A stretch of DNA of 49,261 nucleotides from Candidatus Nanopelagicales bacterium (GCA_041674545.1 JBAYVO010000002.1:1-49261), one strand, 5' to 3'. Positions 36,951 to 40,718 are shown, counted from the first letter of the stretch. Translations and numbers: made by a program. Notes: a model not told the origin generated them from the letters alone.

Positions 36951-39900
36951 TTAGGCTCGTCTTGGAGTGCGTGGGACCCAGATGGAGACCGAGGGTTGCC
37001 TGGTCGACTGGCCTGACAATGCCTTGATCGATTGGTAGTTCAGCGAGTACACGTCTCTGAACCAATCGACTGCCATTCGGCCGCTGTTGACCTTCTCGAC
37101 TCTGAACAGTCGGGTCTCAGACTTCGGTGCGTAGACATCAAGGACGTAGTCGTTGATCGTCGTACCAGCGTTCCGGTAGCCGAGCACGTAGACGTAGCCG
37201 TCACCGTCGTTGCCGACGTCCAATAACGTCACACCGGGATCAGTTGGGGCGTAGAACTGTTCTTCCTCAGAGTTGCTGTTCTCGCTTGCAAATGCTTTGA
37301 CTGGAACGCCGAGCAGATTGAATGCCGAGAGTCGCTTCGCTCCTTGTTCGAGGATGACCAACACGCCATTTGACGAGACGGCCAAGCCGACCGGCTTGTC
37401 AAACAGTCCTGGGCGAGCACCGTCCTTATTGCCCGGCCCGCCAAAGACAGATGCCACCGGCGCGGTGCCTTCATCGACGGCGTGGGACTTCAAAGCCGGG
37501 CGAAGGATCGACAGTTGCGCCGAGTCAGTATTGATACCGGTGATGAGCCCGCCCGGCGCCAAGGACGCCGCATGCACTCTCGTTGGGATGTGCCCGTACA
37601 CCTTCTTTGGATCGAAGACGATCGAATTGTTGCCGAGAGCCAATTTGCGAATGTGGTAGCCATCTTGCTCGTCAGCCGTGGCTGCTACAGGTTCAAGAAG
37701 CCACGCTTCCGCGACGCCGTTGGTTCGATTTTGCAACGGATCCGTCAGCACGATCGGTGGATTGCCGGTGTACGTGGTGCTCAATTCCGCGGCACTAGCG
37801 CCAGGATCTTCGGAGCTGTTCAGCTGGCGCACGAACCACTTGCCGGCCGATTTGTAGACGTACCCCATCAGGCCCGTTCCGTGCCCATACATGACCGAAC
37901 CAAGCGTGAAGTCGGCGTCATGAATGGTGCCCGGAACTTCTGCTCCCTGCGCCATCACGTAGCGGCCACCAGCAACGTCAGTCGTCCAACGACGCTCAAG
38001 CCGGGACTTGCTCCCGAGTTCAACGGCGTCCTCGAGCACAGTCACTTCGATAGAGTCTTTGACCTCCTTGAGGTTTGAATTGTCGAGCCAATCGGTCGCT
38101 GCGGAACCGACTGTCCAACCATCCTGGCTCAGGATCGTGATGATGTACTGAATCCTGCCGCCAAATGGGACCTGCGGAAGCGGGATCTCTAATGGTTCGG
38201 TACGTGGGTTCTCGAAGGCGGGAATGACGGCGTACGTGGAGTACTTGTCACCGTCGATGACCTCGATGGTTTCTTTGAAGCCCGCCGGGAGGTACTCCTT
38301 GCCCTCGGTCTGATTCTCCAGCAGCACAGTTACCTTCCAGCACGCTGCCGACTTTGAGAAACCACTATCGAATTGCGGCTTTGCCGTCAAGACTGCGTCG
38401 TAGGTTGCAGACAGATCCCAGTAGTTTGTGTCGTTCTGGCAAACCGCCCCGGTCGCCTGACCCACCTGGGACGCGGCGCCAGCCAATGCCGTCACGATGT
38501 AGATCTGCCCGTAAATCGGAATTGCTTTCTGAATGGTTGACTCAGTTAGCGTCTCCAGGTAAAGGCCCATCGCCTTGTAAATAAACCTGTAGGTGAGGAA
38601 GTCCAGGATCATCTTCGAAATCGCGATAATTCCCGCCGAAATCTGATTTGAAGTACTGGCCAGCCTTCCTTTCATCAATCCCTCGATCAGACCGAACACC
38701 GTCTCGATCCAATAGATCGCACCGAATCCAGACTTACGACGCTTCGCGATGTCCTCCGCCGTCAAGTAGGTGATTTCGATTTCACCATCGTCATGCTTGA
38801 TCGTCTTGTAGTCGCTTGTCGTCTGACTACACATGTTTCGGAATCGGTTGGCAGCAATCGCTTGGCTGAGGAACATCAATCCTGGAATTCCGATGTCGAC
38901 GACTGCGGTGGTGAACACAGCATCTTGGTACCAATCGGGACGGACGTAGTGATTGTCCGCAGTGTCGACGTAGGCCGGCAACAACTTTGGCTTACCATCT
39001 GGCCCCAAGACTTCGGTTCCATTGGCATCCAACTCGACAGACTTGAACAGATCCCGCCAGTCGTTGCCAGTGCCAAGTGATCCCGCGATTACCCGTGCTC
39101 GGACCGCTTCCGCCGGCATCGGGATCGAGATATCCAAGTAGTTCGAATCGAGACCAACCGGCAGGCCCATCACAATGGGAATTGATTCAAGCAAACGAGC
39201 CCCAAGGCGCCACGTTGGATCCAGCTTGTTGTTCGACAGCCGATAGTCGTCCGGTGGTGAAATCGGCAGATCTCTAGAGTCAAAGTACTGAACGCCGAAG
39301 GTGACAGTACGGTCGAGGTTGTTCCAGACGCGAAGCTTCAGCTGAGTCCCGCCACCCTGTGCCTGGCTTGTTTCTTTGAGCTGCACGTACATCCCGTTGC
39401 GACTCTTCTTTTCGCCCTGCAGGACTGAGTAGTTCACCTTGGCGTCGTTTGATCCGCGGAACTTCGCCAACACTCCGCCACCCGCGCTATTGCTCCTGGC
39501 TGCGTCGCTAACGGTTATTGGGCTAGGTGGAGTGGCCGGCATGACCGCCCAGGTCTTGCCACCGAGGTCGTTGAGGTCGGTCTCAGCGTTGATCATTGCA
39601 CCAAGGTCAGGCTCGGCCTGGACAACTTCATTGCCTTCTGCAAGCGCTGCCTGCAAGGCGGCTTTGTAGTTGAAGATGAGGTCGCGAGGAATCTCTTTGC
39701 CTTGCCACTTCATGCCCATCTGGACGAAGGGGATCAAGGTCTTTGCCGGGAGTTCACCAATCTCCGGATCGACGGAGATTGTCGGTTCCCCGGGGGGCTT
39801 CTCGTAGCTAGTCCCGAGCCTTGGGTCAAGAGTTTGCGGCACGATCTTGCCGGACTTCACGCCCTTCACCATGTCTTCGAGAATCCCGTACGGGGCCCTC

Positions 39901-40718
39901 GTCTTCTTGGCGAGTGTTTCGATTGCCTTGATGAGCCCAGACAGGCTGCCGGTGCTTGCAATGAGGTTCATGGTGATTGCCGCGGCAGCGGGGTCAACAG
40001 TGCGAATCCACGGAGCGCAATAGACCAATCCAGCTGACGTCGCCGAGTTCACATCGATCGTGTCTCCGAGCGCTACCGATTCGTCGACGTTGGTTGGGAG
40101 CCCGTTACTGCCTCGAAGTTTGAGACGTTTAAGGACTTCACTTTGCCCAAACAGCTGCTCCAATGATCGCTTGTTCTCGGTTGCTGCCAGGGTCACCCGT
40201 CGCTGTGCCCCCTGCGGAACCAAGAACACCGTCGATACCGGAACCTCCTGTCCGGTGGGCAAAGTGGCGTAGACGATCGCCATAGCGACACGGCTCTTGG
40301 ACAATTGCAGCTTCTCCACGGAGGATCCGTCAGTGCCCGCGACGTAGTGGCTCATGAACTCGCGGTCGAACCGATGGCCCACCGGATTCTGATCGGTGAA
40401 TTGTGCCCAGGTATTCGCGGTGTGCGGCATGATCGGAAACTCTTTGCCCGCCACCCAGATGGACAGCTGCTTTGGCTTTAGGAGCCCCACCGTCGGCATC
40501 GCAAAGTTGAGCATTCTGGTCTCAAAGCCGTTCTCTTCACCCCCGGCAGCGCGGTTGAGCAGAGAATCATCTGACTCAAACAATCGAGACAACGCAATTC
40601 CACCAGCGACAGCGGCTCCGGTGCCCGCACCGACCCAGGTCAGAAACCGCCTGCGCGTTACTTCCTTGGTCGCCTCGTCCTCTTGCTCGGGTGTGAAGCG
40701 GTTCAAAGGATCGCTCAT
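36951..40718 (-). CDS. 1255-aa Tat-signal protein of unknown function with C-terminal NHL-like repeats
   Basis: Twin-arginine motif TRRRFLTWVGAGTGAAVAGGIAL (40584-40718). About 1000 aa with no motif I recognise, including a hydrophobic/amphipathic block IYWIETVFGLIEGL...ISAGIIAISKMILDFL...IYIVTALAGAASQV. C-terminal LFDKPVGLAVSSNGVLVILEQGAKRLSAFNLLG is NHL-like. GAGG RBS. Confidence 0.85.
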   Translation of the reverse strand: MSDPLNRFTPEQEDEATKEVTRRRFLTWVGAGTGAAVAGGIALSRLFESDDSLLNRAAGGEENGFETRMLNFAMPTVGLLKPKQLSIWVAGKEFPIMPHTANTWAQFTDQNPVGHRFDREFMSHYVAGTDGSSVEKLQLSKSRVAMAIVYATLPTGQEVPVSTVFLVPQGAQRRVTLAATENKRSLEQLFGQSEVLKRLKLRGSNGLPTNVDESVALGDTIDVNSATSAGLVYCAPWIRTVDPAAAAITMNLIASTGSLSGLIKAIETLAKKTRAPYGILEDMVKGVKSGKIVPQTLDPRLGTSYEKPPGEPTISVDPEIGELPAKTLIPFVQMGMKWQGKEIPRDLIFNYKAALQAALAEGNEVVQAEPDLGAMINAETDLNDLGGKTWAVMPATPPSPITVSDAARSNSAGGGVLAKFRGSNDAKVNYSVLQGEKKSRNGMYVQLKETSQAQGGGTQLKLRVWNNLDRTVTFGVQYFDSRDLPISPPDDYRLSNNKLDPTWRLGARLLESIPIVMGLPVGLDSNYLDISIPMPAEAVRARVIAGSLGTGNDWRDLFKSVELDANGTEVLGPDGKPKLLPAYVDTADNHYVRPDWYQDAVFTTAVVDIGIPGLMFLSQAIAANRFRNMCSQTTSDYKTIKHDDGEIEITYLTAEDIAKRRKSGFGAIYWIETVFGLIEGLMKGRLASTSNQISAGIIAISKMILDFLTYRFIYKAMGLYLETLTESTIQKAIPIYGQIYIVTALAGAASQVGQATGAVCQNDTNYWDLSATYDAVLTAKPQFDSGFSKSAACWKVTVLLENQTEGKEYLPAGFKETIEVIDGDKYSTYAVIPAFENPRTEPLEIPLPQVPFGGRIQYIITILSQDGWTVGSAATDWLDNSNLKEVKDSIEVTVLEDAVELGSKSRLERRWTTDVAGGRYVMAQGAEVPGTIHDADFTLGSVMYGHGTGLMGYVYKSAGKWFVRQLNSSEDPGASAAELSTTYTGNPPIVLTDPLQNRTNGVAEAWLLEPVAATADEQDGYHIRKLALGNNSIVFDPKKVYGHIPTRVHAASLAPGGLITGINTDSAQLSILRPALKSHAVDEGTAPVASVFGGPGNKDGARPGLFDKPVGLAVSSNGVLVILEQGAKRLSAFNLLGVPVKAFASENSNSEEEQFYAPTDPGVTLLDVGNDGDGYVYVLGYRNAGTTINDYVLDVYAPKSETRLFRVEKVNSGRMAVDWFRDVYSLNYQSIKALSGQSTRQPSVSIWVPRTPRRA

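Follow-up and report, generated by a model that had tools for sequence, protein, structure and literature searches.

What is the large protein encoded at the centre of an operon of lipoprotein genes in a Candidatus Nanopelagicales bacterium, and how might its unusual export signal relate to its role? The window analysed here is a stretch of 49,261 nucleotides, in which the original prediction had proposed a 1255-residue Tat-exported protein that might serve as a pre-assembled scaffold or a latent membrane-inserting component.

Export signal and operon setting

The open reading frame at 36951..40718 was confirmed on the minus strand, where it encodes a protein of 1255 aa (135.9 kDa, pI 5.4), hereafter P0001. 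It is a genuine gene: full-length homologues exist at 71% and 68% identity, a GAGG-type ribosome-binding site is found 15 nt past the stop of the upstream gene, and 17 nt separate the TAA of P0001 from the start of the next gene, in an operon that is closely spaced throughout. The operon and the export signal comprise the following features.

42912..48602, minus strand: opens the operon; RHS/YD-like lipoprotein (~1882-1896 aa) whose hydrophobic C-terminus is rich in Gly zippers
40734..42857, minus strand: upstream partner, 707-aa pentapeptide-repeat lipoprotein (signal ...LLATAC)
36951..40718, minus strand: P0001 coding sequence
40587..40718, minus strand: Tat signal peptide or anchor of P0001, residues 1-44 (n-region with RR motif, h-region W28-L43, then S44-R45)
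40638..40658, minus strand: twin-arginine motif T21-R22-R23-R24-F25-L26-T27, from the sequence and a 10-sequence alignment
34180..36933, minus strand: downstream partner, 917-aa pentapeptide and NHL lipoprotein (domain matches, lipoprotein signal)
30248..34183, minus strand: 1311-aa pentapeptide, NHL and fn3 lipoprotein; its start overlaps the preceding gene's stop
29718..30251, minus strand: small lipoprotein of ~175 aa with an LAGC lipobox, conserved in loci L001 and L002

The textbook twin-arginine signal that had been claimed for P0001 was borne out. Tat signals combine an S-R-R-x-F-L-K motif with an h-region and a basic c-region (PMC7317946), and T21-T27 agrees with the S/T-R-R-x-F-L-K consensus from that source at five of six specified positions. 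The h-region consists of 16 Gly/Ala-rich residues with a Kyte-Doolittle (KD) value of 1.47, within our definition of at least 12 weakly hydrophobic residues, and is followed by the basic c-region residue R45 (K in P0002, H in P0003), a position often occupied by a basic Sec-avoidance residue. Across 10 aligned sequences, down to 27% identity, R22, R23 and W28 do not vary, and the signal is kept in both close homologues. P0001 shares the S/T-R-R-x-F-L motif, the Gly/Ala-rich h-region and the basic c-region with Tat lipoproteins and membrane-anchored Tat proteins of Actinobacteria. The signal itself contains no lipobox Cys, and a candidate signal peptidase I site lies at A42-L43-S44/R45. Pfam matches to PF10399 on P0001 (16.7 bits, cut-off 24) and to PF10518 in 4 of 29 relatives (each E>=0.002) were sub-threshold. 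The same genome encodes tatC, tatA and a tatB-like gene, with TatC at 228 bits and TatA/B-family matches at 57.7 and 42.1 bits, all exceeding the Pfam cut-offs. Within the operon, P0001 bears the sole Tat-type signal, its five neighbours having Sec-type lipoprotein signals. Judged from its signal sequence, P0001 is probably exported in a Tat-dependent manner. As had been supposed, it would be an uncommonly large substrate: its single chain of 135.9 kDa is close to FdnGH (142 kDa), the largest Tat cargo mentioned by a 2026 review, and hence in the upper Tat size range (PMC13186574).

The family as a whole is less uniform in its signals. The RR motif occurs in 25 of the 37 relatives with a complete N-terminus and, with the family tree rooted at its midpoint, on either side of the root. 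In at least 10 relatives (the tree tally is also 10) it is combined with a lipobox, as in Tat-dependent lipoproteins, and the lipid anchoring of many relatives places the family at the membrane. Two members carry Sec-type lipoprotein signals, and thus Sec transit is not impossible for this fold. Signal peptides are entirely absent from a derived clade and from its partner proteins, which argues that the family's job does not depend on Tat export.

Cofactor binding is common among Tat substrates, and the original prediction had named as a refutation a match of P0001 to a well-known enzyme family, such as a cofactor-containing oxidase unrelated to its neighbours. No such match appeared, and an enzyme of this kind is very improbable. 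Pfam (also run on 29 relatives), NCBIfam and PDB searches yielded no enzyme or cofactor family. No Cys, His or acidic constellation is conserved across 40 members, over which only N466 and G518 are invariant, and none of the four Cys residues of P0001 is invariant beyond three close homologues. The strict neighbour linkage in 12 of 12 loci, described below, likewise argues against such an enzyme. P0001 differs from known Tat substrates in having no cofactor domain, and also in carrying membrane-grade helices within the chain, a trait that has not been described for Tat cargo.

Domain order and fold searches

We modelled the whole protein with AlphaFold2 (mean pLDDT 79.4), and searched both this model and residues 56-975 with Foldseek. 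The predicted chain begins with an alpha/beta domain and continues through a beta-sandwich, a helical block of 167 residues and a beta domain to a propeller.

39534..40526, minus strand: domain 1, alpha/beta, residues ~65-395 (AlphaFold2; pLDDT mostly 72-91 per 10-residue block)
39447..39515, minus strand: low-confidence linker, residues 402-424 (pLDDT <50 in both models)
38949..39434, minus strand: domain 2, beta-sandwich, residues ~429-590 (AlphaFold2; conserved motif)
38436..38936, minus strand: hydrophobic/amphipathic helical block, residues 595-761, H1-H4 plus short helices (hydropathy, AlphaFold2)
38850..38921, minus strand: H1, apolar membrane-grade helix, residues 600-623 (KD, conserved columns)
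38436..38519, minus strand: H4, charge-free Gly/Ala-rich helix, residues 734-761
37929..38429, minus strand: domain 3, beta-rich, residues ~764-930 (AlphaFold2)
36954..37910, minus strand: six-bladed NHL beta-propeller, residues ~937-1255 (Foldseek; family profile against PDB)

The last ~160 residues had been recognised as NHL-like; this assignment stood, but the propeller spans about residues 937-1255 (~320 residues, six blades). Foldseek matched it to Pizza6, TRIM71, Thin, TRIM2, Brat and PknD (E~1e-9, target-normalised TM 0.59-0.68), and the family profile matched PDB NHL chains at E=6e-22 over four stretches. As a single sequence, the NHL region of P0001 falls below Pfam detection, and BLAST finds no resemblance between it and the NHL domains of the neighbouring operon proteins. 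The C-terminal ~320 residues are thus what P0001 shares with six-bladed NHL proteins such as TRIM71/Lin41, Brat, Thin, the PknD ectodomain and the teneurin NHL domain, whereas the other 75% is unrelated to any of them.

The claim that some 1000 residues carry no assignable motif also held. Residues 56 to ~935 had no match in Pfam, NCBIfam, PHROGs, PADLOC or PDB sequences and no identifying Foldseek match in PDB and BFVD; the search with residues 56-975 returned nothing at E<=1e-3, and at the same threshold domain 1 had no known relative (PDB, BFVD). Domain 2, for which Foldseek found weak matches to generic beta-sandwiches, holds the most conserved motif of the family, V-W-N466-N-L-D-R470 ... 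V-Q-Y-F-D, together with G518. Domain 3 and the helical block form the region matched by the most distant relatives.

The TcA-like or pore-forming toxin folds that had been suggested for comparison did not emerge, with no TcA or alpha-helical pore-former in the top-50 Foldseek lists for the whole protein or for residues 56-975. Toxin-related rows were chance-level beta-sandwich alignments to cholesterol-dependent cytolysins (CDC; E 0.007-0.1, TM about 0.1), presumably involving their beta-sandwich domain 4. A CDC/MACPF pore-former was rejected on these weak alignments and on the absence of the MACPF/CDC family from the sequence searches. P0001 was also rejected as an RHS/YD or teneurin-type shell protein: Pfam and NCBIfam found no RHS/YD repeats or RHS-associated core in it, and these lie in the neighbouring 1896-aa gene instead.

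The hydrophobic helical block

An internal hydrophobic block of ~90 residues had been described. It is present, but is larger, with helices from 595 to 761, and its most hydrophobic helix, H1, had been overlooked. Of the four numbered helices, H1 and H4 are apolar and the other two, H2 and H3, amphipathic (hydrophobic moments 0.38-0.39). In P0001, H1 has a best 18-residue KD of 1.83 and a hydrophobic moment of 0.07. In the 10-sequence alignment its T604 and G610 are near-invariant and P612 is invariant, as are P734 and G737 of the conserved A-I-P734-x-x-G737 motif that opens H4. The block is a hallmark of the family, and H1 is membrane-grade in nearly all relatives, its mean 21-residue KD being 1.84 across 25 Tat-type members and 1.83 across the 10 without a signal, with values of up to 2.76. 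The helices of P0001 are less hydrophobic than those of its relatives, H1 being borderline (KD 1.58-1.83) and H2 and H3 charged. Lys and Arg are concentrated between H1 and H4 and sparse on the sides facing the large domains, and an internal K-R-R-K-S-G motif preceding H2 is limited to the three closest homologues. The block has the lowest pLDDT of the P0001 model (36-50). Apart from the RHS tail, P0001 alone in the operon has membrane-grade internal helices.

Tat rejects or aborts cargo that exposes lipid-interacting hydrophobic regions (PMC13186574), and the helices of P0001 would therefore need shielding during export, which fits the idea of a latent membrane-inserting component. Our preferred reading, to which we assign a probability of about 0.4, is that P0001, exported via Tat, is a membrane-proximal subunit that uses its shielded helices to engage a membrane. 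We propose that P0001 folds in the cytoplasm and that its apolar H1 and H4 would therefore be covered, by the amphipathic H2 and H3 and by neighbouring domains. TatABC would export it in this folded state, and the Sec route would be avoided because there the internal helices of membrane grade would serve as stop-transfer segments. P0001 may then remain at the outer face of the cytoplasmic membrane, tethered in its own clade by an uncleaved signal or bound partners and in relatives by a lipid anchor, with the helical block as the part engaging the lipid bilayer and the propeller as a docking module. We infer both the tethering and complex formation and the shielding followed by engagement of a membrane, be it the producer's own or a target's. 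The original proposal is partly supported: the family-wide hydrophobic block and the sole use of Tat within the operon speak for a latent membrane-inserting component, but no match to a TcA or pore-former fold appeared.

The same helices could instead form a permanent polytopic anchor, with H1-H4, or H1 and H4, as true transmembrane helices in the producer's membrane, a cytoplasmic Lys/Arg-rich loop and both large halves outside, as the membrane-embedded base plate of a surface complex. We consider this unlikely. H1 is membrane-grade, the H1-H2 loop of P0001 carries eight Lys/Arg residues, including K-R-R-K at 659-662, and the charge distribution in Tat-type members obeys the positive-inside rule for such a topology. 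However, signal-less members share this charge pattern and, with cytoplasmic domains, would violate the rule, and H2-H4 of P0001 lie under the usual transmembrane threshold. Nor is Tat known to translocate, behind a hairpin, a second folded half of 500 residues. Integration of hydrophobic helices by Tat is described for tail-anchored proteins (PMC10924467) and for actinobacterial Rieske proteins of the QcrA type, which are assembled by Sec plus Tat and, like P0001, have a Tat signal and further hydrophobic helices (PMC3471235, PMC5449189). Yet known dual Sec/Tat proteins start with their Sec-inserted helices and end with an internal Tat signal, the reverse of P0001. As a Rieske-type protein P0001 was rejected on its N-terminal Tat signal, its later helices and its absent cofactor domain.

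A soluble structural scaffold, in which the block is a buried helical bundle or oligomerisation stalk, seems rather improbable. Such a wall-zone protein would position pentapeptide-repeat rods and the RHS shell, and would use Tat only because a multidomain protein of this size is quick to fold or is assembled ahead of export. P0001 consists mostly of binding-type modules (beta-sandwiches, NHL propeller) with no catalytic signature, H2 and H3 resemble soluble bundles, and the A-L-S/R signal peptidase I site is plausible, with small residues at -3 and -1 conserved in the close clade. A 21-residue apolar helix with conserved Gly and Pro whose KD averages 1.84 (up to 2.76) and which recurs throughout the family is, however, unusual for a soluble core, and the many lipid-anchored relatives put the family at the membrane.

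Genomic partners and the envelope

Homologues and their neighbourhoods were searched, as had been recommended. Neighbouring genes could be read at 12 loci, reaching down to about 20% identity, and in every one of them a pentapeptide-repeat gene adjoins the P0001 homologue, so that in these loci the pairing is obligate; 6 of the 12 also have an RHS-like gene. Orthologues of the 707-aa pentapeptide-repeat gene hold the same position in loci L008 and L009. The 1896-aa RHS-like gene matches YD_repeat_2x above the cut-off and RHS_repeat and Rhs_assc_core just under it. The partners in Methylomusa include two LBP/BPI/CETP-type lipid-binding proteins.

This neighbourhood bears on a strong form of the original idea, that P0001 is a translocator or pore-former for an RHS payload, with a TcA-like role but no TcA ancestry. 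Several exported copies would dock to the RHS shell via their NHL propellers and insert their helical blocks into the target or producer membrane, where an alpha-helical channel would deliver or assist the Gly-zipper-rich RHS C-terminal domain. We regard this as doubtful. The operon does pair an RHS shell with a hydrophobic payload, lacks a small immunity-like gene behind it and encodes three propeller proteins; the Methylomusa lipid-binding proteins speak in its favour, and the Lys/Arg pattern around H1 and H4, identical across signal types, fits insertion from the large-domain side. Other lineages have entire systems without signal peptides, and Tc toxins are likewise not known to carry signals. 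The neighbourhood further resembles TcA with a teneurin/TcB-TcC YD-shell in combining an RHS/YD shell, propellers and a large protein with putatively shielded hydrophobic helices. However, the propeller sits on P0001 rather than on the shell protein, and the RHS gene is present in only 6 of 12 loci, so RHS delivery cannot be the general function of the family. Lipid-anchored relatives, moreover, would stay on the producer.

Nor does P0001, at about half the size of TcA, share a Pfam domain or fold with it. As a TcA it was rejected on the absence of VRP1/SpvA-like shell, TcB-binding (TcA_TcB_BD) and neuraminidase-like domains from P0001 and 29 relatives (Pfam, E<=0.01) and on the Foldseek results given above, although the low confidence of the helical block leaves room for local resemblance. 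Alpha-helical pore-formers (colicin-type, Bcl-2-like, Cry domain I), which in soluble form bury an apolar hairpin under amphipathic helices and insert into a membrane when triggered, would be similar in principle in pairing apolar with amphipathic helices inside a soluble exported protein, but the apolar helices of P0001 lie ~110 residues apart rather than in a contiguous hairpin, and there is no sequence or fold match.

A lipoprotein complex under a Gram-positive wall would be an odd site for a weapon against other cells. As a membrane-proximal subunit, P0001 would join pentapeptide-repeat (beta-helix rod) lipoproteins in a multi-protein envelope assembly, which in the P0001 clade may additionally take in the RHS/YD-shell lipoprotein. 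Of 1.84 billion cluster representatives, 56 belong to the family; none of these bears an informative name, and 60 close relatives contain no member. P0001 founds a very rare, uncharacterised protein family with a fixed module order. Our combined findings of a conserved Tat signal, a rare family, a hydrophobic block and adjacent pentapeptide-repeat genes thus suggest that P0001 marks an undescribed envelope system.

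Gene, operon and a predicted twin-arginine signal

P0001, the 1255-residue protein under study, is encoded on the minus strand by gene three of an operon with very short intergenic gaps. Between the stop codon of the upstream gene and its ATG lie 15 nt, which contain a GAGG-type ribosome-binding site, and the downstream gene starts 17 nt past its TAA. Elsewhere in the operon, the 917-aa and 1311-aa genes share an ATGA overlap. The slightly lower G+C content of the operon (0.583 vs 0.611 for the remaining window), together with its patchy distribution, marks it as accessory DNA.

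Features of the window
40718..36951, minus strand: ORF of P0001 (1255 residues, 135.9 kDa, pI 5.4)
29718-48602, minus strand: operon; the lipoprotein signals of its other genes read LASAC, LATAC, LVSAC, LVAC and LAGC
38727-38744, minus strand: K-R-R-K-S-G motif inside P0001 (residues 659-664)
42912-43830, minus strand: C-terminus of the RHS/YD-like lipoprotein (residues ~1590-1896)
25581-27074, minus strand: 497-aa protein with one N-terminal transmembrane anchor, then an unbroken run of pentapeptide repeats over about 400 residues (Pfam 270 bits); it lies 2.6 kb outside the operon, past a LuxR-type regulator and a 422-aa protein that had no Pfam or NCBIfam match
9607-12381, plus strand: 924-aa secreted enzyme in which one chain combines an AA10 lytic polysaccharide monooxygenase with a GH5 cellulase and a CBM2 cellulose-binding domain

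The N-terminus of P0001 (...EVT-R-R-R-F-L-T-WVGAGTGAAVAGGIAL-S-R-LFE) fits the S-R-R-x-F-L-K motif. It continues with a Gly/Ala-rich h-region of 16 residues, which has helix-destabilising Gly residues close to its end, and a c-region that includes a basic residue, in agreement with the anatomy of Tat signals (motif, h-region, basic c-region) summarised in PMC7317946. The curated signal models of Pfam gave only sub-threshold scores. Conservation lends the signal statistical weight: R22 and R23 are invariant in relatives down to 27% identity, and 25 of the 37 relatives whose N-terminus is complete have an RR motif ahead of a hydrophobic stretch. TatC, TatA and another member of the TatA/B family are encoded in the same genome. 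The Tat assignment is a prediction from the motif, its conservation and the genome context. Like its two close homologues, P0001 has no lipobox Cys and keeps small residues at -3 and -1 (A-L-S before R), so that the signal may either be cleaved or stay on as an uncleaved anchor. All five operon partners in the window carry lipoprotein signals without an RR motif, and P0001 would be the only Tat client of the operon.

Domain architecture and the hydrophobic helical block

An AlphaFold2 model of P0001, built from a 29-sequence alignment, reached a mean pLDDT of 79.4 and a pTM of 0.62.

Predicted domains of P0001 (AlphaFold2 model)
Residues ~65-395: alpha/beta domain
Residues 402-424: disordered linker
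Residues ~429-590: beta-sandwich
Residues 595-761: helical block, including a 38-residue helix; mid-block pLDDT 36-50
Residues ~764-930: beta-rich domain
Residues ~937-1255: propeller

Against PDB sequences, P0001 itself resembled NHL repeats only over residues 1086-1163. The family profile matched NHL chains at E=6e-22, and every structure that Foldseek returned for the whole model was an NHL propeller or another propeller with six blades (E about 1e-9, target-normalised TM 0.59-0.68). Together, the profile and Foldseek matches indicate a complete propeller of about 320 residues. The original prediction of an NHL-like C-terminus was thus right as to identity, but the propeller is twice as long as it had estimated. 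Since propeller matches swamped the search with the whole model, we re-modelled residues 56-975 alone (pLDDT 72.9), and this model had no Foldseek match at E<=1e-3 in PDB or BFVD. Its best-ranked matches were generic beta-sandwiches, and those to cholesterol-dependent cytolysins (presumably domain 4), pilin and DUF1425, at E about 0.01, were dismissed as evidence on that account. The body of P0001 likewise had no family match in Pfam, NCBIfam, PHROGs or PADLOC, and a Pfam run on 29 family members returned nothing. For some 880 residues no related fold could be recognised, and new folds would probably emerge once a structure is solved.

A match to a well-known enzyme family unrelated to the neighbours, such as a cofactor-containing oxidase, had been named at the outset as a finding that would count against a scaffold or latent membrane-inserting component. 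No family match and no conserved Cys or His was found, and we dismissed such an identity on these grounds; with nothing in its favour, the idea that P0001 is a cofactor enzyme is barely credible.

The hydrophobic segment originally placed at about residues 668-755 is real, but the block begins further towards the N-terminus, with helix H1 (600-623). No other internal segment of P0001 is as hydrophobic as H1 (best 18-residue Kyte-Doolittle value 1.83, hydrophobic moment 0.07). Moments of 0.38-0.39 mark helices H2 (666-683) and H3 (692-707) as amphipathic, and H4 (734-761) is Gly/Ala-rich with zero charged residues. The hydrophobic elements conserved throughout the family are H1 and H4: in a 10-sequence alignment, P612, P734 and G737 never vary and T604 and G610 hardly vary, the mean 21-residue Kyte-Doolittle value of H1 is 1.84 in Tat-type members (n=25) vs 1.83 in signal-less members (n=10), with a maximum of 2.76, and the block of many relatives contains two to four membrane-grade segments. 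Directly before H2 lies the K-R-R-K-S-G sequence at residues 659-664, which resembles an internal twin-arginine motif; R660-R661-K662-S663-G664 is invariant in the three close homologues and is not kept in more distant relatives. The block could also be a buried bundle within a soluble scaffold, a reading that we consider improbable.

Another possibility is that P0001 is a permanent polytopic anchor in the membrane of its producer. Lys and Arg are scarce on the H1 and H4 flanks directed towards the large domains and more frequent between the two helices, and in Tat-type members this pattern would suit such a topology. Tat is also able to integrate helices (PMC10924467, PMC3471235, PMC5449189). 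However, the order of signal and helices in P0001 is opposite to that of the known dual Sec/Tat class, and the charge pattern is identical in signal-less members, with no flip in a positive-inside test. This unflipped bias argues weakly, and not decisively, against co-translational insertion of an anchor in signal-less members. Overall, we regard a permanent anchor as doubtful.

A rare family paired with pentapeptide-repeat genes

An exhaustive HMMER scan of 1.84 billion cluster representatives identified 56 proteins at E<=1e-3, nine of them at E<=1e-30. The source names of ten family clusters, one of which comes from Methylomusa anaerophila, were all "hypothetical" or "uncharacterized protein". 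The P0001 gene was not found in 60 related genomes (six further members of its genus, 30 genomes from the family and 24 from the order). When these and 400 sampled genomes of the phylum were searched, there were propeller-level matches only and no full-length match. One of these, in G218, the only genome of the 400 with relatives, proved by hhalign to represent two tandem, very distant, full-length members (E 3e-78 and 8.5e-63). A word-indexed homology search returned the two close homologues only, an alignment-based repeat added nothing, and none of 375 matches from a pattern search of genome contigs for related loci was confirmed. The sequencing runs behind loci L001, L002, L008 and L009 are SRR31089925, SRR26671184 and SRR26671185. 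The close homologue P0003 (68% identity to P0001) and the more distant P0010 (29%) come from one shared run and P0004 (36-38%) from a neighbouring accession, so several lineages of that environment hold their own version of the system.

In a quick, midpoint-rooted maximum-likelihood tree, Tat-type members fall on either side of the root, and 10 signal-less and two Sec-lipobox members are nested within one well-supported derived clade. The tree implies about seven gains or losses of a lipobox.

The strongest result of our analysis is the pairing with neighbouring genes. A pentapeptide-repeat gene adjoins the family member in all 12 loci with readable neighbours (the window, L001, L002, L008, L009, L019, L010, L012, L016, L020, L021 and L022), whose members share between 71% and about 20% identity with P0001. 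An RHS/YD-like gene and a pentapeptide-plus-NHL gene are present, with order kept, in six of the 12, all of the clade nearest P0001. Partners of the signal-less members in Methylomusa and G218 also have no signal peptides, and two neighbours in Methylomusa contain an LBP/BPI/CETP lipid-binding domain above the Pfam cut-off. At this locus (L010, 14310-19569 of AP018449.1), the signal-less member is followed by three genes: two encode paralogues of ~550 aa with the LBP/BPI/CETP domain at the C-terminus (35 and 31 bits vs a cut-off of 23), and the third encodes a 605-aa pentapeptide-repeat protein. The G218 operon (L020, contig C18, 3651-13430, minus strand; actinobacterial, G+C 0.69) runs from a 940-aa pentapeptide-repeat protein to a 1495-aa and an 889-aa protein, the latter two being the tandem family members (~20% identity), and all three proteins are signal-less.

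In the window, the RHS protein extends ~300 residues past the D-P-V-N-F-S-D-A-S-G core end into a Gly-zipper-rich, hydrophobic region with one membrane-grade segment (1618-1639); the gene after it encodes the 707-aa pentapeptide lipoprotein and not a small immunity-like protein. Such a tail and the operon itself would suit a role for P0001 as translocator or pore for an RHS payload, and the signal-less systems would fit this role too. Yet the RHS gene is missing from half of the loci, and both marks of TcA membership that were examined are absent: P0001 showed no TcA Pfam domain, and the best 50 Foldseek matches of either model included no TcA structure. Colicin-like and other pore-former folds were likewise missing from these matches. 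We consider a translocator role unlikely.

Proposed export route and implications

Beyond the carriage of a Tat signal and the presence of Tat genes, we infer the following route, to which we give a probability of about 0.4 as a whole. P0001 would fold in the cytoplasm with H1 and H4 covered, be exported by Tat in the folded state, remain on the outer face of the membrane, and there join the pentapeptide-repeat lipoproteins, here also the RHS lipoprotein, in one assembly. The helical block would serve as a lipid-engaging element and the propeller as a docking module. We propose the Tat step because a chain that passes through Sec unfolded should stall at any membrane-grade helix it contains. 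Tat disfavours cargo with exposed lipid-interacting surfaces (PMC13186574), and the helices would thus have to be shielded in transport. Total size should not be prohibitive, since FdnGH (142 kDa) is among the largest Tat cargos and linked globular domains can be transported (PMC13186574).

Neither the Tat signal nor the NHL propeller is unusual as a module. Our literature and database search found no description of the ~880-residue core, of a conserved hydrophobic block inside a Tat cargo, or of strict pairing with pentapeptide-repeat proteins, and a literature search for the combination of RHS, pentapeptide, NHL and Tat found nothing relevant. We rate it as a surface system of several exported proteins that is RHS/polymorphic-toxin-like and has an orphan as its core subunit. 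Its RHS-containing version combines a shell lipoprotein that has a hydrophobic payload with three propeller proteins and no immunity gene, an arrangement that, to our knowledge, has not been described for RHS/YD proteins of Gram-positive bacteria.

A bolder interpretation, which we think rather unlikely, is that this family makes up a so far unrecognised membrane-engaging system together with the pentapeptide-repeat protein that is its obligatory partner. Its core would be an alpha-helical, voltage-assisted inserter, exported folded by Tat or released signal-less in other lineages, and acting in this actinobacterial clade as a channel or translocator docked by an RHS cocoon via NHL propellers. 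If true, this would be a functional analogue of TcA, of independent ancestry, in a monoderm bacterium, and would for the first time define a role for pentapeptide-repeat proteins outside the cytoplasm.

Proteins usually use Tat because of cofactors, hitch-hiking or fast folding. Following the proposed Tat route, P0001 would exemplify another ground, the keeping of membrane-grade helices from the Sec translocon, and its mass of about 136 kDa would make it a test of how large a Tat cargo can be. Pentapeptide-repeat proteins are understood chiefly as cytoplasmic DNA mimics such as MfpA and Qnr. Here they occur as exported lipoproteins and are genomically tied to one partner family in all 12 loci, which offers an entry to their extracytoplasmic function.
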